Of a stretch of DNA of 64,000 nt, positions 3,561 to 62,507 are shown piece after piece; within the stretch, counting starts at the first letter, position 1; each line of letters starts with the position of its first letter. The notes below the pieces were generated by a model. It searched no databases, had not been told where the DNA came from, and saw only the letters and a program-made list of their open reading frames with translations. The stretch covers positions 6,746 to 70,745 of the forward strand of contig JAAZYG010000005.1 of NCBI GenBank assembly GCA_014239775.1, in the 5' to 3' direction. The translations under genes and the position numbers were made by a program. The DNA is from Candidatus Uhrbacteria bacterium. Its GTDB lineage: Bacteria > Patescibacteriota > Patescibacteriia > UBA9934 > GWF2-40-263.

Positions 3561-5405
3561 TTGGGGAAAACCATGACTCTTGAACCGAGGTCATTGTCGC
3601 CAGTTAGAACCTGGGCAAGCATTAACGCGCCTCGCAACATATTACTTCTACTTGTTGGGTGCGAGCATTTAGGTGTACCTAAAAAGGTCATCTTCAATAG
3701 TTTACCTGATAGACTAAAAGGTAAATCGATATCATTAATGAGAAAAGATGAAGATCAAATTACTCTTGCAGAGTATGATGATGTTCTAAGACCTTTAATA
3801 GATCACTTAGGTCACGTGAGTCTACTGAGCGAAATTGGTCATGCATCACCAAAGATTGACTTTGGTTTTGAAACCGTCAAACGTATCGCAGGCACACTTC
3901 CTGGACTCGGTCATTTTGTTAGTCCATGGGTTGCATACAAACAACTCAATGAAGCTGCAAGAGCTTGGAATAATAACAAAATCTGGAAGGCTGATTTAAT
4001 AGATCACAACATGGTTAGGCTTATGTGTACATATAATCCTGCTAGTCCAACCGGACAAACCATCGATCGAATTAAAGACGCAGTTTCACTTTTGTATTTA
4101 ATCAGAGGGATGAATGAAGCTCTTCCAGGAATTTTTCCAGGAAGATACTTGTTGTCTGAAGTTAATTACAGACTAGTCAATCTACCACTAGAACAACTAC
4201 TGCGGACATTGTGTCCAAAAAGTAATATTGAATTTAGTGGAAATGTCTTATACTTCAACAATGAACTCGTTGCAACAAAGGTTTGGCTAAAACCAGACCA
4301 CAGAGGATGGTTCATGGGTGACTACTCACGAACTGAGATTGATGGTGTAATGACAACACCAGCAATCTTAATCTTAAAAGATGTGTGTACACAAGCGACA
4401 GGAAATGTATGTCCTGGTCAAATATTGCCACTAGTTCGTCTAGGTGAAATTTATCAAATCAACGAAGATGTGAGTCAATTTTCACACACAATACTGGACA
4501 TTCGGTGGAACACAACTTGGGCAGATAAAGTAAAAAGTTATCTACCGTTCGTTGGTGGTCATAAAAACTTCCAAAATGAGTTCATTACTGAAAACAGGGC
4601 GGTTGCAGCAACTCAACAAGTTTCGCTTGAAAAACGTAAGACTCAAATTTATACAGCACTTATTTCAGCGATTTATCCTGATAAATCAATGTTTCAATCT
4701 GTTCTTGAAGGTAAAAATCTTACAGTAATAGATGACACTACAGTGTCTTTGTTTGTTGACATTGCAAACTTCTCAAAATGGGCAAACTCCTGTGGAGCCA
4801 ATGAAGTATACAATTTTATGCAGCCCTTTATGACTGGTGTGAATAAAATTGCCTTACGTTGTCATGGTAAGCTGTGTAATTTTACCGGTGATGGATGTGC
4901 AATTAATTGGTTTGGTAAAATAGGACCCAGCAAACAATATTCAGTAAAACGAAGATTGCAATTTGCCATAGATGCATCTCTCTACATTTTGAAACTTGCA
5001 GATAATGCTGGATGTTCTGTACGTGTAGGAATTTCTGTTGGTCAAACAATCACATACACTATTCCTGTAGACAAAAGTGGTATTCAAGCAATGCCTGTCA
5101 CAAATGGAGTAGCAATGAATATGGCCGCAAGAGTGCAGGCTGCAATGAAACCAACACAACAAAAAATGAAATGTTCTGTTGCAGCAATGGATGATAGTGC
5201 AGAAAAAGTTCTTACAGCTGATGGAATCTTAAATATTGCACCATTAAACATAAGGATCATTGGTGTAGTCGAAGAAAAGTCTGATACATTTAGTTTATTC
5301 CAAATCATGCCAACAACAATGACTGAAAAGGACCAAAACTGGATCACACGGACTGGCGCAGACACGTCTATGAATATGCCCACAATCAACTCAAATGAGG
5401 ATTAA
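3561..5405 (+). CDS. class III nucleotidyl cyclase (adenylate/guanylate-cyclase-type catalytic domain) with a roughly 385-aa N-terminal domain of unknown function
   Basis: The C-terminal domain has the metal-binding Asp in VDIANFS and in FTGDG, plus VRVGISVGQ...TNGVAMNMAARV, which is the N/R transition-state motif. The true start is probably the ATG at 3573 (MTLEPRS), since 3561 is a TTG. The 5' part of the gene is clearly more G+C-rich than its neighbours. Confidence 0.7.
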   Translation: MGKTMTLEPRSLSPVRTWASINAPRNILLLLVGCEHLGVPKKVIFNSLPDRLKGKSISLMRKDEDQITLAEYDDVLRPLIDHLGHVSLLSEIGHASPKIDFGFETVKRIAGTLPGLGHFVSPWVAYKQLNEAARAWNNNKIWKADLIDHNMVRLMCTYNPASPTGQTIDRIKDAVSLLYLIRGMNEALPGIFPGRYLLSEVNYRLVNLPLEQLLRTLCPKSNIEFSGNVLYFNNELVATKVWLKPDHRGWFMGDYSRTEIDGVMTTPAILILKDVCTQATGNVCPGQILPLVRLGEIYQINEDVSQFSHTILDIRWNTTWADKVKSYLPFVGGHKNFQNEFITENRAVAATQQVSLEKRKTQIYTALISAIYPDKSMFQSVLEGKNLTVIDDTTVSLFVDIANFSKWANSCGANEVYNFMQPFMTGVNKIALRCHGKLCNFTGDGCAINWFGKIGPSKQYSVKRRLQFAIDASLYILKLADNAGCSVRVGISVGQTITYTIPVDKSGIQAMPVTNGVAMNMAARVQAAMKPTQQKMKCSVAAMDDSAEKVLTADGILNIAPLNIRIIGVVEEKSDTFSLFQIMPTTMTEKDQNWITRTGADTSMNMPTINSNED

Positions 5406-6880: not shown

Positions 6881-7654
6881 TTACTCTTGTGCTTCAAGGA
6901 CTTCACTTGCAGCCTCAATCACATCCTTGAATTGATTAATTTTAACACTTGCACCACCAACCAAAACTCCATCAATACTTTTCTCTCTTAATAAAGCATA
7001 TGCATTATCACCATTTACACTACCTCCATACAAAACATTTAATTGATCTTCCTTTATACCAGGAAAGATATCTGACAAAACAGTTTTAATAAACTCATGC
7101 ACCTCTATAACCTGTGCAACATCTGCATTTTTACCAGTACCGATTGCCCAAATGGGTTCATATGCTATAAACAATTTAGCTGAAGATCGTAATCTAATCC
7201 CACCTAATGCACTGGCTATTTGATTTTTTATAATCTCCAAATAACCACCCTCCTCTCTATGTTCAACACTCTCACCAATACACACTATTGGGGTTAAATT
7301 ATTCTCTAAAGCCTTTTTTAATTTCCTATTAACAATTTCATCCGTTTCAGAAAACAAACCCCTTCTTTCTGAATGCCCAATTAATACATGTGTTACACCG
7401 ACCTCATCTAACATTCTTGAAGAAATCTCACCAGTAAATGCACCCTTATCTTCCCATGACATGTTTTGTGCACATAAAGAAACAGATGACCTTGCGATCA
7501 CTTTTCTAACTTCCGACAAAGCAATAAATGAAGGACAAATGATTAAATTAGGAACAACTTTCCTACCCCTCAATGTCAAAAGCGTACCACGAGCCAACGC
7601 AATACTTTCTCTAACTCCCACATTCATCTTCCAATTTCCTATAACTGTTTTCAT
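6881..7654 (-). CDS. tpiA: triosephosphate isomerase
   Basis: NWKMN near the N-terminus, the active-site His in LIGHSERR, and the IAYEPIWAIGTGK motif. Confidence 0.85.
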   Translation of the reverse strand: MKTVIGNWKMNVGVRESIALARGTLLTLRGRKVVPNLIICPSFIALSEVRKVIARSSVSLCAQNMSWEDKGAFTGEISSRMLDEVGVTHVLIGHSERRGLFSETDEIVNRKLKKALENNLTPIVCIGESVEHREEGGYLEIIKNQIASALGGIRLRSSAKLFIAYEPIWAIGTGKNADVAQVIEVHEFIKTVLSDIFPGIKEDQLNVLYGGSVNGDNAYALLREKSIDGVLVGGASVKINQFKDVIEAASEVLEAQE

Positions 7655-8919
7655 ATTTTTGCCTTCCTTATGAACTCCTCCTTAGACTTATAAGGACCTA
7701 TAACAGCAACTGTCATTTGATCTAAATCAAGAATTTCTTTTGCCACATCTTGAATTTCTTCCAAAGTTACTCCATCTATTTTTTTCAAATATGCAGCTGG
7801 TGTTTTAACATCATCTTTAAACAGTGCTTGTGTTGCATACCACGAAGCACGTTGATACGTATCTTCAAGCTGTATTGAAAACTGTCCTTGTATATATGTT
7901 TTCGCATCTACCAATTCTTGCTTTGTAACACCCTTTTTTATAATAGATTTTACCTCTTTTAAAATAGTCTTAACAGCAAGTGGTAACCGCTTTTTGTCCA
8001 AACCAGCCCTAATCATAAAAGTACCAATATCATCATATTGATGACTGTATGCACGTACAAAATATGCTAAGCCCAGTCTTTCTCGTACCTCAATAAAAAG
8101 CCGTGAACTCATGTTGCCACCTAATATCACAGAAAGCAAGGATACAATATGATTCTTTTTTGAATCAATACCATATGTATAAAATCCTAATGCTAATTGA
8201 ATTTGTTCTGTTTTTTTGTATTCAACACAAATTCTTGGTGATTTTTTTGGTTTTGTGATCTTAAACTCTTCAAAATCTTTATCTGACTTTCCTTTTCGAA
8301 CAACTGAAAATTTATTTTCAACCCAAACCTTAGCTTTTTTATTAATATTTCCAGAAACAACAACAACCATATTTGAAGCGCTATAATGCTTCTTATAATA
8401 TTCTAAAATTTCATCTCTTGGCATTTCTTTCATTGTCTTTGGTGTACCTGCTATATTTCGTCCCAACGTATTACCTTTATACATCTCGTCTTCAACAATA
8501 TCCTCAACATGACGCATAGGATTATCCCTATACATGTTAATTTCCTCAATCACCACACCACGCTCACGATCCAATTCTGTTTTATCAAAAACAGAATTAA
8601 ACAACATATCACTTAGAATATCTAAAGCTAATTTTAGGTGAGTCTTGCTAACTTTTACGTAATAACCTGTAACATGCTTATCTGTAAATGCATTAAAATC
8701 AGCACCAATTGAATCTAATTCTCTAGTAATGTCCTGAGTTGTTGGGCGACGTTTTGTGCCTTTAAACAATAAGTGCTCAATAAAATGTGACGCACCGTTT
8801 AGTTTTTTATATTCATACCTTGAACCAACTCCAACCAAAATCATGACCGTTACCGTGTCTGTGCCTTTTGAAGGAGCAAATAAAACTGGTAATGAATTTT
8901 TTAATGTAAATTTTTGCAT
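7651..8919 (-). CDS. M16 family zinc peptidase (pitrilysin/insulinase-like)
   Basis: HFIEHLLFKGT is the inverted HxxEH zinc-binding motif. Length and layout fit M16. Confidence 0.75.
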   Translation of the reverse strand: MQKFTLKNSLPVLFAPSKGTDTVTVMILVGVGSRYEYKKLNGASHFIEHLLFKGTKRRPTTQDITRELDSIGADFNAFTDKHVTGYYVKVSKTHLKLALDILSDMLFNSVFDKTELDRERGVVIEEINMYRDNPMRHVEDIVEDEMYKGNTLGRNIAGTPKTMKEMPRDEILEYYKKHYSASNMVVVVSGNINKKAKVWVENKFSVVRKGKSDKDFEEFKITKPKKSPRICVEYKKTEQIQLALGFYTYGIDSKKNHIVSLLSVILGGNMSSRLFIEVRERLGLAYFVRAYSHQYDDIGTFMIRAGLDKKRLPLAVKTILKEVKSIIKKGVTKQELVDAKTYIQGQFSIQLEDTYQRASWYATQALFKDDVKTPAAYLKKIDGVTLEEIQDVAKEILDLDQMTVAVIGPYKSKEEFIRKAKI

Positions 8920-13038: not shown

Positions 13039-13072
13039 ATCTTTATTTAGCTGAACTTAGCTAAATAAAGAT
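13039..13072. promoter_or_regulatory. perfect 14-bp-stem palindrome (operator or bidirectional terminator)
   Basis: atctttatttagct-gaactt-agctaaataaagat. It lies about 100 bp upstream of the holB start and 19 bp upstream of a plus-strand -35 box. Confidence 0.4.
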
Positions 13073-13090
13073 ATTTCTAAATTGTAGGTC

Positions 13091-13119
13091 TTGACAAAAC
13101 TGACAAAAACTGTTATTAT
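13091..13119 (+). promoter_or_regulatory. sigma70-like promoter pointing into the 13.1-15.1 kb island
   Basis: TTGACA (13091-13096), 17-nt spacer, TATTAT (13114-13119). Confidence 0.45.
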
Positions 13120-13599
13120 TGTCATGTTGATAATCGGCATGTAAATCATTTATTTGAAAATGCCATACAATTGAATACTGGGGAGAGACCAGTGCTATCT
13201 GTGATTGTACAGATGCTCAATCATATAAAATCGATTTTTGTATGTGTCTTTACCTTGATACATTCAACAATCGGTTTTTTATTAATTAAGATTACGGAGG
13301 AGAGAGTGTACCCGTCCCTTCAAATCCGAAAGGAAGAGATGGGCGGTGGATACCAAATGGAATAACTGGGTTTACTCACTTAATCCATACGCAAGGAATC
13401 CGTTATTCATACCAACTCTTGAGTAGGTCACTGAATTTTTTCCCTCCGTGTTCTGAGTTAATAAAACCAAAAAAACTCTATTTATCTACTGTAGATAAAT
13501 ACTTTAACAAGGCAAGCGAACCAATTGAGATGCTTTGAGCTCTTGGTGACCGCATTGATGTGCATATTGACACATCTAGTCTTTTTCTCAGAGCGCTCC

Positions 13600-13826
13600 C
13601 CCTGATGGATGGGTATTTATATACCCATCCATCAGGGCCATTATTAATTTAACACAACCCCTTGCCCGATCGTAATCTTATTTACAAATAAGACATCTAC
13701 GATCGGGTTTCTGTCATAATACGCAATTTATTTGTGTGTTATGAAGGAAATCACATAAAAATAATCTGATCTGGAATGAAGTAAATTATCAACTACTTCC
13801 TTCCAGATCAGATCCCCATGGTGGGG
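13600..13826 (+). repeat. array of four long perfect inverted repeats (hairpins) in the leader of the foreign ORF
   Basis: 13600-13637 has a 17-bp stem ccctgatggatgggtat / atacccatccatcaggg. 13665-13707 has a 10-bp stem cccgatcgta / tacgatcggg with a nested 8-bp stem tcttattt / aaataaga, followed by TTTCTGT. 13764-13813 has a 13-bp stem atctgatctggaa / ttccagatcagat with inner gaagta / tacttc pairing. 13814-13826 is cccca-tgg-tgggg. Confidence 0.6.
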
Positions 13827-13845
13827 CTTTGAAAAGGACAGCACT

Positions 13846-15123
13846 GTGCAAATAAGCACAACACCATCTCAGAAAAGGAGAATTTTAATGCTGCAAAACA
13901 TTTTTGAACCCCCCACCCTCATGGGAATGCAATTTTGTATTCCTGAAAACGACTCGCGTCCGGGCCTGCCGGGCAAGATCGAGGTTCTAGGTCGCAAGGC
14001 CCAGAAGTACTTCACAGGAAAGATAAACTTCCAAGAAAGCCATTTCAACAAAGGTGTTGCCGTCAGTCTGTGCATTCAGGCTGGTCAGGACTGGACCAAG
14101 TTGGGAAGCATTTCTGCGCTGAAAAAGCGTGGTAATGAGCTCCGGCTGATCTCTGAAGCCAGCGTGATTGCTGCTTCTACTGGTCTTCCGGTTGAATGGC
14201 TCGTTAAAGGAACTGAGTCTGTCGAAGGACTGCGAATGATCAAAAAGGCGGTTGAACTCGCTCGAAAGGTCAATCGTAATCACATGTTCTGGAGCAGTGT
14301 AATGACTCCCAGTCAAGTGATTGACCAGGAAATGAACGTCCTTTTGGCTCTGGAAGATGCCCTTATCACCGCACTCAAGACTAACCCCAAGAGTGATGAT
14401 GAGAAGGAAGATCTCAAGCAGAGTACAACGACTGTTGATCTGCGTGACATGGATATGGAGGCTTTCATCGAAGGTCTAGTTCCTGTACCTTCAGAACTTC
14501 CGAAGTTGCCTAGTACCAGGTCTGAATCCGACACCAAAGTCAAGGCAAAAACCTGTACTGACAACAATTGTGTGATCGTGAAGCGGATTGAACTGCATGA
14601 ACCTGGAACCTTGGTGGTTATTAATAACGAACTTCGTTATGTTTGCTGCGGCAAGCATGGCAAATGCCGTTCTTTGATGACACCTGAGGTCGCAAGAGTG
14701 ACTGCAGATGAAAGTAGGCTTCGACGTCAGTACCGGATCCCTGCTTGGAAGCAGATTGTGACTGAAGACTTTCAGTCTGATCGCCACACGGTCTACTGTC
14801 CGAGTTGTTCAAAATTCATCCTCAAGGATGGGTCAAAGACACTCGCACAATGGATCACTTCTGCTGAAGAGACTGAGAGAGATCTTTCTCGAAATGGTAG
14901 GCAAATCGCACGTAGCTTGGGATACAACAATCCCTTGAACAACGACGCCTACCTTGAGCTGGCATTGGCAGAGCCAGGACTGCGTGCTAACGGAATCGTT
15001 GGCCCCAATAAGACCCGAAAAGGTCCAATGGGAATTCGCGCAGCCTTGGCAATCTCCAAGACCAACCCGAATCGTCGTAACGGCAAAAACCGTAGCAACA
15101 ATCGGAATGCTCAACGCTCCTAA
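13846..15123 (+). CDS. hypothetical Cys-rich protein with a zinc-ribbon-like C-terminal half and a basic Arg/Asn-rich tail, in a compositionally foreign ORF (probable start 13888, 411 aa)
   Basis: Long ORF whose G+C is visibly far above the flanks (about half by eye, against roughly 30%). An AAGGAG SD sits 7 nt before the ATG at 13888. Cys pairs CTDNNC, CCGKHGKC and CPSC are present, and the C-terminal tail is KTNPNRRNGKNRSNNRNAQRS. It lacks the Lys/Asn/Ile bias of the host proteins. Confidence 0.5.
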   Translation: MQISTTPSQKRRILMLQNIFEPPTLMGMQFCIPENDSRPGLPGKIEVLGRKAQKYFTGKINFQESHFNKGVAVSLCIQAGQDWTKLGSISALKKRGNELRLISEASVIAASTGLPVEWLVKGTESVEGLRMIKKAVELARKVNRNHMFWSSVMTPSQVIDQEMNVLLALEDALITALKTNPKSDDEKEDLKQSTTTVDLRDMDMEAFIEGLVPVPSELPKLPSTRSESDTKVKAKTCTDNNCVIVKRIELHEPGTLVVINNELRYVCCGKHGKCRSLMTPEVARVTADESRLRRQYRIPAWKQIVTEDFQSDRHTVYCPSCSKFILKDGSKTLAQWITSAEETERDLSRNGRQIARSLGYNNPLNNDAYLELALAEPGLRANGIVGPNKTRKGPMGIRAALAISKTNPNRRNGKNRSNNRNAQRS

Positions 15124-15228
15124 AAAGAGCACTTGTTAATCAATAAAACGATTAACACTTGGGGAACGTAGAAACACTCTTTCTGCGTTCCCCACTCATT
15201 AAAGGTCATAAGACAACTTGTGCTCTTT
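15124..15228 (+). ncRNA. structured 3' element immediately after the foreign ORF (nested stems)
   Basis: An outer pairing aaagagcac (15124-15132) with gtgctcttt (15220-15228) encloses the hairpins gttaatc-aataaaac-gattaac and ggggaacg-(17 nt)-cgttcccc. Confidence 0.3.
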
Positions 15229-15476
15229 AATGGGTATAGAATTCTCTCCCCAAGAGACCAAAATAACATCCTAATAAGGATGTTATTTTGATATAAAAAG
15301 AACCCGGAAAAAACCGAGTTCTTCTACTGGCACGACAAACGCACCCTCTCTCTTCATATCTACTTATGTAGACAAAAAACATTAACACATACACAAACTT
15401 TGTCAAGTATCTTAAACAAAGACAATAAAGATAACTAATAATCTCTATAAAAAAAGGCTTTTTATGTTTAAATTAC

Positions 15477-15505
15477 TTGACAAATATCATATTTTTTGTT
15501 AATCT
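15477..15505 (+). promoter_or_regulatory. sigma70-like promoter
   Basis: TTGACA (15477-15482), 17-nt spacer, TAATCT (15500-15505). Confidence 0.5.
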
Positions 15506-15609: not shown

Positions 15610-15762
15610 ATGCCTGGAAAGATAGAGGGAAATAAAGCAAACACGCTTAAACAGACGTGTATTACTAGAACTGCACTAAACTTCTGTAATTTTCGTCAAA
15701 CTGACATAAGTCGTAATCCACGACGTTTTCAACCTTGTTACATTTGTCCAGGCGGTGGTTAG
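15610..15762 (+). CDS. 50-aa basic Cys4 small protein or peptide (absent from the ORF track)
   Basis: GGAGG SD 4 nt before the ATG. The ORF is MPGKIEGNKANTLKQTCITRTALNFCNFRQTDISRNPRRFQPCYICPGGG with a C-x8-C...C-x2-C pattern. It has its own promoter upstream and a terminator right after. Confidence 0.35.
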   Translation: MPGKIEGNKANTLKQTCITRTALNFCNFRQTDISRNPRRFQPCYICPGGG

Positions 15763-15830: not shown

Positions 15831-16607
15831 TTACTCAAATTTTTGTTTCTTATAATTTTCAGCACCTCTCCATGCTAATTCAAACAAAGCTTTTACAGTA
15901 TCTGCAATTTCCTTACTGGTAATGACCACTGACAAAATAGCTGATTTATATGAAAATAAAAATATATGATTATCTCTCACAACAATACTTCCATGAATCG
16001 GAAACTCACTTGCAGGTATAATTCGTATCTCCCCTTTTCCCATGTGAGGTAATGATACATCTGATTCATCTTCAACAATTGCAAGAACCCTGTGTTCAGT
16101 ATCGCTAGTTCTTAAAGTTGCATGGTGAGCATCTCTGTCGTGCATTACTTCAATTGTATTTTGAACATCCTCAAAAGGAAATATTTCAAAAAATTCACCA
16201 TCTAATTTTTCAAACATTGAACGAACTGTCTTAATCCCTTCAATTCCTTCAAGATATCTGATTTGCGGCTTTGTACCTTCTGCATTAAAAAGAGCCATTA
16301 ACATTGGTAATGTTTTATCTAACTCTGCTCTTTTTTCTGCTATCGCCCTATTTTGAGTATCTAAAATTGCACCAAGTCTTTCTGGAGACTCAGCTGCATA
16401 AAAACGCTTCTTACCTTTTACAAAAGTTGACATAAGACCACGTCCTGACAAAGATTCTATCATGACGTAAGTAGTTGCTCTGTTTACTTTTGATTTATGT
16501 GATATGTCTTGAACAGGTGAAGGACCCAACTCTAAAGCCGCCAGGTACACTGACGCCTCTTTATCAGAGAGTCCTAAATGTTTTAATTCATTGATTAGCT
16601 CATCCAT
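15831..16607 (-). CDS. TrmB-family transcriptional regulator
   Basis: The N-terminal wHTH LGLSDKEASVYLAALELGPSPVQDIS is typical of TrmB, followed by a C-terminal effector domain. Confidence 0.65.
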   Translation of the reverse strand: MDELINELKHLGLSDKEASVYLAALELGPSPVQDISHKSKVNRATTYVMIESLSGRGLMSTFVKGKKRFYAAESPERLGAILDTQNRAIAEKRAELDKTLPMLMALFNAEGTKPQIRYLEGIEGIKTVRSMFEKLDGEFFEIFPFEDVQNTIEVMHDRDAHHATLRTSDTEHRVLAIVEDESDVSLPHMGKGEIRIIPASEFPIHGSIVVRDNHIFLFSYKSAILSVVITSKEIADTVKALFELAWRGAENYKKQKFE

Positions 16608-28274: not shown

Positions 28275-28285
28275 AAATTTAAACT

Positions 28286-28315
28286 AAAAAGAACGGATCC
28301 AGTCCGTTCTTTTTA
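28286..28315. terminator. bidirectional terminator between the 744-aa gene and rplL
   Basis: agaacgga-tccag-tccgttct hairpin with an A-run on the left and TTTTT on the right. Confidence 0.55.
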
Positions 28316-61319: not shown

Positions 61320-61331
61320 ATATAAACTAAA

Positions 61332-61366
61332 AATACCTTTGACTATTGTACCAAAGGTATTTTTTA
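61332..61366 (+). terminator. intrinsic terminator after rpmE
   Basis: aatacctttg / caaaggtatt 10-bp stem followed by TTTTT. Confidence 0.6.
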
Positions 61367-62453: not shown

Positions 62454-62477
62454 ATACTCAATATATAATCATTGACA

Positions 62478-62507
62478 AAAAACCATACAAACTGTATGGT
62501 TTTTTTA
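62478..62507 (+). terminator. intrinsic terminator after prfA
   Basis: aaccatac-aaact-gtatggtt followed by TTTTTT. Confidence 0.55.

Follow-up and report, generated by a model that had tools for sequence, protein, structure and literature searches.

A cluster of long hairpins upstream of an orphan gene in a Candidatus Uhrbacteria genome and its probable role as an RNA-level leader module

The 64,000-nt stretch of contig JAAZYG010000005.1 from a Candidatus Uhrbacteria bacterium that is analysed here, hereafter termed the window, contains a cluster of long hairpins at positions 13600-13826, shortly upstream of an open reading frame (ORF; 13888-15123, + strand) for a 411-aa protein of an orphan family. 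The cluster is far beyond chance. On balance, the hairpins probably constitute an RNA-level leader and intercistronic module that combines terminator-like hairpins, a clamp hairpin, and a translational switch, with transcription termination and RNase cleavage as presumed activities. Most likely, the leader hairpins act on a highly structured transcript by controlling how it is terminated, stabilised and translated. Unless stated otherwise, the features of the transcription unit described below are located on the + strand.

Hairpin 1 (13600-13637) consists of a stem with 17/17 bp and the 4-nt loop UUAU. Hairpin 2 (13665-13707, with a tail to 13715) has an outer stem of 10/10 bp and a nested inner stem of 8 bp (13676-13693); TTTCTGTC follows directly on its 3' side, the longer U-rich tail being UUUCUGUC. 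Hairpin 3 (13764-13813), which begins 124 nt upstream of the start codon (ATG-124), comprises 19 bp, with 13 perfect bp and 20-nt arms that are 95% complementary and contain one mismatch (19/20). Hairpin 4 (13814-13826; 5 bp, CCCCA-TGG-TGGGG, i.e., CCCCAUGGUGGGG) is located at ATG-74; it is conserved in sequence and, with an energy of -6.1 kcal/mol, predicted to be metastable. These four inverted repeats had been noticed in a preliminary description of the sequence, and all of them are present as reported there; the statement that their stem sequences are mutually unrelated likewise holds within the window. An additional hairpin of 17 bp including 3 G·U pairs, designated b' (13708-13750), had been overlooked. 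Both of the smaller palindromes reported further upstream exist as well, albeit with shifted boundaries: the one placed at 13483-13497 extends over 13479-13501, forming an 11-bp hairpin with 11-nt arms and a 1-nt gap between them, and the gatgtg/cacatc hairpin (6 bp) occupies 13557-13576 rather than 13553-13572. The latter is followed by UAGUCUUUUUCUCAG, with a tail to 13591, and was flagged as terminator-like.

When folded as RNA, the 246-nt segment 13590-13835 reached -108.6 kcal/mol, as compared to -50.0 +/- 4.5 kcal/mol for 200 dinucleotide shuffles. This shuffle-controlled folding of both strands, which the preliminary description had proposed, resulted in z-scores of -13.0 for the + strand and -10.8 for the - strand. 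The window as a whole contains 14 perfect stems of at least 10 bp (3.6 +/- 1.6 in dinucleotide shuffles) and seven of at least 13 bp (0.04 in shuffles). Six of the 14 stems fall into positions 13039-15290, which make up 3.7% of the window, and 21 of its 25 most stable 240-nt tiles lie in 13441-15360. The hairpins do not belong to a family of repetitive extragenic palindromic (REP) elements or miniature inverted-repeat transposable elements (MITEs), since each hairpin sequence is single in the window (a blastn search with 13590-13830 retrieved only itself). Ordinary terminator-like hairpins of the bidirectional type, with complementary A-tract/U-tract arms unlike those of hairpins 1-3, were observed at 8573-8598, 28285-28315, 61329-61364, and 62477-62505.

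The hairpins are part of a single transcription unit of about 2.2 kb (~13126-15295) with a non-coding leader of about 760 nt and one ORF. It forms a + strand island between holB and a TrmB-like gene, all neighbouring genes being encoded on the - strand and having a G+C content of about 33%. Its sigma-70 promoter (13091-13119) comprises TTGACA, a 17-nt spacer, and TATTAT with a TG extension, and scored 11/12 plus TG. In seven loci the -35 box is invariant and the extended -10 box is kept, with the consensus GGTCTTGACAAAACTGACAAAAAnTGnTATTGT. A promoter scan found no other promoter-like site on the + strand between 13120 and the ORF, whose start codon is preceded at a distance of 7 nt by a Shine-Dalgarno sequence, GGAG (13877-13880), as read from the sequence. 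About 20-50 nt upstream of the -35 box, a 14-bp perfect palindrome of the TTAGCT..AGCTAA type (13039-13072) occurs, which is found at the equivalent place in most of the seven loci and is a possible operator, presumably bound by a protein. The gene of the TrmB-like regulator (15831-16607, - strand) adjoins the island, which makes its product an obvious candidate for a protein binding to this palindrome. In distant loci, the leader shows a recurrent order of palindrome, promoter, UGGGGAGAGA(C/G), T1-type hairpin, and a structured core RNA. All loci have the purine motif UGGGGAGAGA (13179-13188 in the window) close to the 5' terminus of the leader. The terminator-like hairpin T1 (13227-13280) has the stem AAAAUCGAUU/AAUCGGUUUU, followed by a U-run, and a pyrimidine motif in its loop; its helix shows compensatory changes relative to the closest related locus, and the same element occurs in the related loci L006, L008, L009, L010, and L018. 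In the distant loci, the T1-type hairpin combines the U-run with a loop containing a CUCUUUCC-like motif.

The core RNA, of about 175 nt (13287-13461), is closed by ACGGAGG/CCUCCGU and lies directly upstream of the part of the leader that contains the hairpins. In an alignment of ten copies, compensatory changes support 22 of 42 predicted consensus pairs, and the elements GGAGGAGAGAG, AAUG, CCAUAC, and UCACU are invariant. A covariance model of the core RNA yielded 170 bits on the + strand of the window and 20 bits on the - strand; over all copies, scores ranged from 115 to 175 bits on the + strand and did not exceed 21 bits on the - strand. The model also recovered a third copy in L018 on which it had not been trained (76.6 bits). 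From these results, including the strong strand-specificity of the model, the + strand transcript is the functional molecule for this part of the leader. Each island harbors one to three copies, which are located at 237-411 in L001, 1-178 in L005, 2700-2878 in L006, 8672-8880 in L008, 7355-7546 in L009, 2284-2460 and 389-589 (both on the - strand) in L010, and 3912-4073, 4091-4275, and 6015-6242 in L018. The core RNA is possibly a new cis-regulatory or antitermination RNA. Searches of the whole window against Rfam 15 at gathering score returned no relevant family, with no match at all in the island, and seven related loci were likewise devoid of relevant families; at E <= 5, the segment 12900-14000 yielded only chance-level matches to miRNAs and small RNAs (E >= 0.27). 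A scan of the island for tRNA and tmRNA genes found none. Folding of leader tiles resulted in z-scores of -9.2 and -5.7.

The closest relative of the locus, the 2185-bp contig L001, aligns with window positions 13048-15236 at 81% identity. Mean column identity amounts to about 90% in the leader, which includes an invariant stretch of more than 100 nt, against about 80% in the ORF. Hairpin 1 differs between the two sequences by three double substitutions, all of the A-U to G-C type, and by no disrupting change. Hairpin 3 shows one compensatory double substitution, and the 13557-13576 hairpin one compensatory A-U to G-C change. The outer stem of hairpin 2 is invariant, its inner stem is lost, and hairpin b' comprises 18 bp in L001, 14 bp of which form a perfect helix at the base. 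At the place of the 13479-13501 hairpin, L001 contains a hairpin of other sequence. Further changes go through G·U pairs. No pair of the predicted consensus is disrupted.

Series of long hairpins with differing stem sequences also precede the ORFs of the islands in L004, L005, L006, L008, L009, L010, and L018, and L004, L005, L006, and L008 contain a full ordered set of five elements, a to e, in which element d is conserved in sequence. In the relatives, position a is a long hairpin, with an apical loop, GGGAACUCCC, that is conserved in the GC-rich loci. Position b, in L004 and L006, comprises 17-24 bp with a UUUU tail and starts at about ATG-176 to -193, and position c, in the relatives that contain the motif CCCAYGGUGGGG, comprises 18-30 bp and starts at about ATG-121 to -143. 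This motif represents position d and is found at ATG-71 to -76 in L001 (where an A is replaced by U), L004, L005, L006 (two copies), and L008. In most relatives, a hairpin of 4-11 bp from ATG-37 to -43 (position e) and then the ribosome-binding site follow. The corresponding occupants in the window are hairpin 1 for position a, hairpin 2 (and b') for b, hairpin 3 for c, hairpin 4 for d, and, for e, a small hairpin at 13845-13860 (UGUGC-AAAUAA-GCACA; ATG-43) just 5' of the ribosome-binding site. Between lineages the stem sequences are wholly different, and the elements largely retain their order, spacing and length class; the modules of a given island are paralogous to each other. In the relatives, the stop codon of an upstream cistron is immediately followed by a and b, and c, d and e immediately precede the start codon of the next cistron; we therefore interpret a and b as elements of the 3'-end or terminator type, and c, d and e as the 5' untranslated region (UTR) of the gene that follows.

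A second, mutually exclusive structure involves part of hairpin 4. Its 3' arm plus the next nine bases (GGUGGGGCUUUGAAAA; 13820-13835) can form the 5' strand of a long-range helix with codons 5-10 of the ORF (UUUUGAACCCCCCACC; 13900-13917), which include the segment CCCCCCACC (13908-13916) and which we term the downstream box. The duplex has a predicted energy of -17.4 kcal/mol, as compared to -6.1 kcal/mol for hairpin 4, and within a segment of 201 nt, enforcing hairpin 4 costs at least 8.2 kcal/mol relative to folding with the long-range helix. Enclosed by the helix are hairpin e, the Shine-Dalgarno sequence, and the AUG. Of the eight modules with element d, seven show the equivalent helix in their minimum-energy folds. 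A CCCCRCC box is present at +15 to +42 in 7/8 ORFs preceded by element d, has a frequency of about one per 1000 nt in the remainder of these ORFs, and is missing from the start of most island ORFs without element d. For four of the eight modules (those of the window and L001 and the main and accessory modules of L005), the start-proximal site is the best partner of the arm in the whole ORF; the arm scan was weaker for L004 and for the accessory modules of L006 and L008. The extension of the helix varies by lineage yet stays complementary (CUUUGAAAA:UUUUGAA, GUCUCGUGA:UCACGAC, CCUGG:CCAG). Long-range pairing was judged by folding of each locus and ranking of duplexes, as MAFFT/RNAalifold misaligned the variable spacing.

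By its folding energies, this pair of a metastable hairpin and a stabler long-range helix that closes the initiation region corresponds to a folding switch of the MS2 type. Hairpin 4 precedes the box by about 75 nt in the transcript and would therefore be the first to fold, only to be displaced afterwards. Hairpin 4 may represent one half of a folding-controlled translation switch, for which we infer the direction of the translational effect and any trigger. In the maturation gene of phage MS2, a long-distance interaction closes the ribosome-binding region at equilibrium, and a small upstream metastable hairpin forms first and delays closure, so that translation takes place on nascent RNA only (PMC4615214). 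The window resembles this arrangement in the competition of hairpin 4 (-6.1 kcal/mol) with a helix (-17.4 kcal/mol) that encloses the Shine-Dalgarno sequence and AUG. However, the upstream complement in MS2 pairs with the Shine-Dalgarno sequence itself, whereas the partner in the window is formed by codons 5-10, the Shine-Dalgarno sequence and AUG being located in the enclosed loop. The window moreover encodes a bacterial transcript in DNA, shares no sequence or protein homology with MS2, and its switch is predicted from the sequence.

Taken as an RNA-level module, the hairpins would be one copy of a modular a-b-c-d-e set which precedes most protein-coding cistrons of the island, in a unit that would run from the promoter at 13091 to a terminator at 15259-15290. 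Hairpins 1 and 2 would close off the upstream segment, which comprises the attenuator and core RNA here and an upstream cistron in the relatives, as 3'-end or terminator-like structures, the U-rich tract after hairpin 2 being part of this design. Hairpin 3, a long stable clamp directly 5' of the translation-control element, would insulate the latter and probably shield a 5' end generated by processing. In hairpin 4, the 3' arm could pair instead with the CCCCRCC box in codons 5-10; being transcribed first, hairpin 4 would leave the initiation site accessible while the RNA is nascent, until the long-range helix closes it, resulting in a folding-controlled window for translation. The preliminary description had already offered an RNA-level function as one of two alternatives, and this alternative is supported by the strong promoter at 13091, which reads in the direction of the ORF and is the sole promoter-like site ahead of it, by the compensatory substitutions relative to L001 and the positional counterparts at like distances from the start codon in distant relatives, and by the conserved alternative pairing of hairpin 4 with the early coding region. 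An RNA-level function explains the frame of promoter, Shine-Dalgarno sequence and terminator, the start-codon spacing, the pairing with codons, and the strand-specific core RNA.

Several observations weigh against this interpretation. Hairpins 1 and 3 are not followed by a U-tract and therefore are not terminators, and the tract after hairpin 2 is weak: the tail UUUCUGUC contains 5 U of 8, and the hairpin has a 23-nt loop. Processing of the hairpins by RNase III is a conjecture. Regulatory RNA hairpins do not usually have perfect Watson-Crick stems as long as 13-17 bp. Since the long stems are nearly pure Watson-Crick helices that fold alike on both strands, G·U asymmetry leaves the strand undecided (67 versus 68 G·U pairs over 13 segments, with similar minimum free energies on both strands). 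As the lineage is represented by two sequences only (window and L001), the evidence for covariation in hairpins 1-3 consists of four double substitutions, complemented by conservation of position. Finally, the long-range helix is weak and not significant in the main module of L006 (rank 56 of 213), and C-rich boxes are fairly common in the GC-rich relatives.

Other explanations differ in what the structures are for. The hairpins might be binding or assembly sites for the encoded protein, which has a zinc-ribbon-like domain and an Arg/Asn/Gly-rich tail, or for another RNA-binding protein, and form part of an autoregulated ribonucleoprotein or a packaged RNA; the structure would then display recognition elements, and its role would not be in termination or folding kinetics. 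The conserved loop of hairpin a in the GC-rich relatives (GGGAACUCCC) and the conserved hairpin d would suit recognition by a protein, accessory proteins of the relatives also have basic termini, each island carries one to three copies of the core RNA, and the whole transcript is unusually structured and GC-rich. However, neither homology nor fold matches to RNA-binding proteins were found, the stem sequences are not conserved, and both the fixed spacing to start codons and the base-pairing with coding sequence are indicative of translational control. We regard this explanation as unlikely in its own right, while noting that it is compatible with an RNA-level leader module, and both could hold. 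It is also rather improbable that the hairpins are a mere stack of intrinsic terminators or insulators that end an upstream noncoding RNA, with the ORF being expressed separately or by read-through. Several termination signals do precede the ORF: T1 (13227-13280) is strongly terminator-like, the 13557-13576 hairpin is followed by the U-tract UAGUCUUUUU and was flagged as terminator-like, and hairpin 2 is followed by UUUCUGUC, as the hairpins at position b of the relatives are by UUUU(U). On the other hand, hairpins 1, 3, and 4 are devoid of a U-tract, a promoter-like site between 13120 and the ORF is missing, and the A-tract/U-tract arms of the ordinary terminators of this genome are unlike those of hairpins 1-3. 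Elements c, d and e moreover keep similar distances from the ATG, and d pairs with the coding region.

The second alternative of the preliminary description, selection for structure in single-stranded DNA (ssDNA) for recognition by HUH/Y1 transposases or at a replication origin, found no support. In a broader form it holds that the hairpins are folded ssDNA or cruciform sites for recombination or replication of a cassette-like mobile island. The near-perfect Watson-Crick stems with equal folding on both strands would agree with such a function, as would the foreign G+C content at third codon positions (GC3; 0.51 versus 0.19-0.27 in neighbouring genes here, and 0.79-0.96 versus 0.29-0.68 in the relatives), the variable gene content and order of the islands, and the location of the hairpin modules, which are paralogous within an island, at gene boundaries. 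However, no gene for an integrase, HUH/Rep protein or transposase is present in or next to the window island or any related island, the holB-TrmB site is the same in every locus with readable flanks, and each of the sequences is found once in the window. A search for terminal direct repeats gave weak matches of 70-80%, none of them convincing, no GTTRRRY/RYYYAAC cores are visible at the hairpin bases, and the start-codon spacing and the pairing with codons 5-10 are features of RNA. We therefore consider a function in ssDNA very unlikely. The assumption of chance palindromes or copies of a genome-wide REP/MITE family has nothing in its favour beyond the AT-rich background, and next to no probability in view of a z-score of -13 against shuffles, seven stems of at least 13 bp where 0.04 are expected, the lack of a second copy in 64 kb, and the conservation of the hairpins in the orthologous locus L001; within the window, it is refuted.

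Some known systems share single traits with the locus. In the hok/Sok system of plasmid R1, fold-back of the hok mRNA is inhibitory. Metastable hairpins control ribosome access during and after transcription of the type I toxin mRNA of the aapA3/IsoA3 system of Helicobacter pylori (PMC6733600). Type I toxin mRNAs are highly folded and show pairing between the 5' and 3' ends, which resembles the complementarity of UGGGGAGAGA and UCUCUCCCCA before the terminator of the window transcript, and some relatives encode hydrophobic peptides of 41-42 aa after the core RNA. However, the window transcript is about 2.2 kb rather than about 0.2-0.4 kb long and its product is a soluble-looking 411-aa protein; there is no small hydrophobic ORF in the window, and no antisense promoter stood out in the promoter scan. 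Intercistronic hairpins are known as RNase III sites in the early region of phage T7, and as stabilisers in the form of REP elements of operons. Long near-perfect hairpins of mutually unrelated sequence that are repeated between cistrons, before each gene, are reminiscent of these, but hairpins 1-3 have none of the internal loops typical of the T7 sites and, as far as the 64-kb window is concerned, are not a repeated family in the genome as REP elements are. The intergenic region of the filamentous phages f1 and M13 contains the packaging signal and origin hairpins, which function on ssDNA; like the window, it combines several long back-to-back hairpins of unrelated sequence within a few hundred nucleotides. 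In contrast to this region, the window locus is chromosomal and syntenic, lacks phage genes or Rep (gene II), has a promoter, a Shine-Dalgarno sequence and a terminator, and its hairpins are spaced relative to start codons.

Cis-acting leader RNAs with terminators (riboswitches and attenuators) and the processive antitermination RNAs put (HK022) and EAR offer a lead that concerns solely the upstream portion of the leader, where a conserved structured RNA directly follows the promoter and several internal terminator-like hairpins (T1, 13557-13591, hairpin 2) are present; the differences are that no Rfam family matches, and that the core RNA can occur in two or three copies per island. Retrons, group I/II introns and RNase P were dropped as candidates, as neither a reverse transcriptase nor an Rfam match nor conserved motifs were found. 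Ends of IS200/IS605 elements, i.e., subterminal hairpins of a multicopy mobile unit, were ruled out: the sole ORF has no match to TnpA (Y1 HUH) or TnpB, the same applies to the relatives, the hairpin sequences are single-copy in the window, the chromosomal site is fixed across the loci with readable flanks, and convincing terminal repeats were not found. Integron attC sites were rejected likewise. The neighbours are housekeeping genes (holB, BNR, RRF, GlyRS, TrmB, GT4, MreB), no locus contains an integrase, and none of the hairpin bases (CCCTGATGG.../...CCATCAGGG, CCCGATCG.../...CGATCGGG, and ATCTGATC.../...GATCAGAT) contains the GTTRRRY of the attC cores (RYYYAAC ... GTTRRRY).

The ORF downstream of the hairpins encodes a protein with an N-terminal helical domain, a four-cysteine zinc-ribbon-like domain, and a basic tail rich in Arg, Asn, and Gly. 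Searches of Pfam, PHROGs, PADLOC, NCBIfam, and PDB retrieved no match. There are two close homologues, P0001 (94% identical) and P0002 (76% identical; encoded on L001), and an exhaustive profile search detected nine distant homologues with 21-25% identity. The latter share an N-terminal RPGLPG..E.LGR motif, the helical domain, four cysteines that are invariant or nearly so (C253, C260, C304, and C307), and, in most members, the basic tail. An AlphaFold model based on a 12-sequence alignment was confident for residues 20-165 and 240-340, and matched no fold in PDB or BFVD. Differences at codon positions 1, 2 and 3 of the ORF (0.19, 0.10, and 0.32, respectively) follow a coding-type substitution pattern. 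The ORF has a G+C content of 49%. The excess in GC3 of island genes over their host is found in every genome checked, despite conserved synteny (e.g., 0.79-0.83 versus 0.29-0.30 in L009, and 0.92-0.96 versus 0.66-0.68 in L008), and the interior of the ORF is itself moderately more structured than its shuffles, most tiles having z-scores of -2 to -5 (range -0.3 to -4.7) as compared to an average of about -0.7 in control genes. The GC3 excess could reflect selection on RNA structure or stability, or an unusual origin such as a separate gene pool.

The island of the window is flanked by genes for a peptidase M16, GlyRS, RRF, a BNR-repeat protein and holB on the left, and for the TrmB-like regulator, a glycosyltransferase (GT4) and MreB on the right. 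All loci with readable flanks (L004, L006, L008, L009/L017, L010, and L018) have the island downstream of holB and/or upstream of TrmB. Flanking proteins are 92-93% (MreB), 60-64% (TrmB, full-length matches), 59-70% (RRF), 55-63% (GlyRS), and 37-39% (holB) identical to those of the window, and the island proteins 23-26% (full-length matches). Genes of a second orphan family (158-209 aa) precede the main gene in L006 and L008 and follow it in L009; L010 holds a different large ORF. Scans for further relatives found none among viral contigs and one locus among genome contigs; of 31 matches in metagenomes, only L017, L018, and L038 were real, the remainder being due to chance. L017 is the same locus as L009, without a gap; in L009, a run of N at 7172-7271 is flanked by a duplicated 5' end of the core RNA, indicating an assembly gap or a tandem duplication. 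Two small hairpins that resemble each other (13483-13497 and 15359-15373) had been considered as possible element ends and were dropped in view of the weak direct-repeat matches.

In three loci the core RNA is located directly upstream of 41-42-aa hydrophobic ORFs (L005, 237-365 and 378-494; L009, about 7586-7709; L010, about 2205-2079 and 330-205, - strand). The predicted peptides of about 40 aa resemble a single transmembrane helix, and type I toxins or holin-like peptides. No such ORF is present in the leader of the window or in L001.

The 3' UTR contains hairpins at 15135-15156, 15160-15194 (GGGGAACG...CGUUCCCC), and about 15192-15236, the order of which recurs in L001, L004, L005, L006, and L008, with a similar series in L009; one of them has the conserved base GGGGA(A)CG/CG(U)UCCCC. 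Folding of 15141-15340 resulted in a z-score of -13.8. The pyrimidine motif UCUCUCCCCA (15243-15252) is the exact complement of UGGGGAGAGA at 13179-13188, and is found directly before the final terminator in L004, L005, L006, L008, and L009; in L006, L008, and L009, complementarity of the 5' and 3' motifs is kept via a G-C to U-A exchange and G·U pairs. The purine motif UGGGGAGAGA also matches the T1 loop (13227-13280) and GUCUUUUUCUCAG at 13579-13591. The final terminator-like hairpin (15259-15290) has 14 bp, with A-tract and U-tract arms.

As general classes of elements, structured leaders, terminator hairpins and folding switches are all known. The hairpin module, the core RNA and both protein families, however, are absent from Rfam 15, Pfam, NCBIfam, PADLOC, PHROGs, and PDB, and literature searches did not turn up a description of any of them. 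It is conceivable, if rather doubtful, that the cluster is part of an undescribed RNA-centred genetic system at a fixed holB/TrmB site in a small clade of uncultured bacteria, which are probably CPR (candidate phyla radiation)/Patescibacteria-like to judge by gene content and metagenomic sources. Such a system would comprise promoter and operator, attenuator, core RNA, hairpin/switch modules, 5'-3' complementarity, and fast-evolving orphan proteins, the genes of which exceed the host genome in GC3 by 25-55 points. The island could then be a resident RNA-protein particle, a toxin-like or defence-like module, or a domesticated RNA-replicon-like element rather than an ordinary operon. If the reading of the hairpins as an RNA-level module is correct, attenuation, insulation or processing by hairpins, a kinetic translation switch, and 5'-3' pairing would be stacked in one compact natural transcript, in poorly understood uncultured bacteria and with a protein family and an RNA motif outside the curated libraries. 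For genome annotation, the result indicates that the long gap upstream of the ORF is functional RNA, not spacer.

A second promoter-like site (TTGACA at 15478, + strand) was observed between the island and the TrmB gene. It precedes a small ORF (15610-15762) for 50 aa with a strong GGAGG ribosome-binding site and the C-terminal sequence CYICPGGG, and the promoter region resembles positions 9990-10060 of L009.

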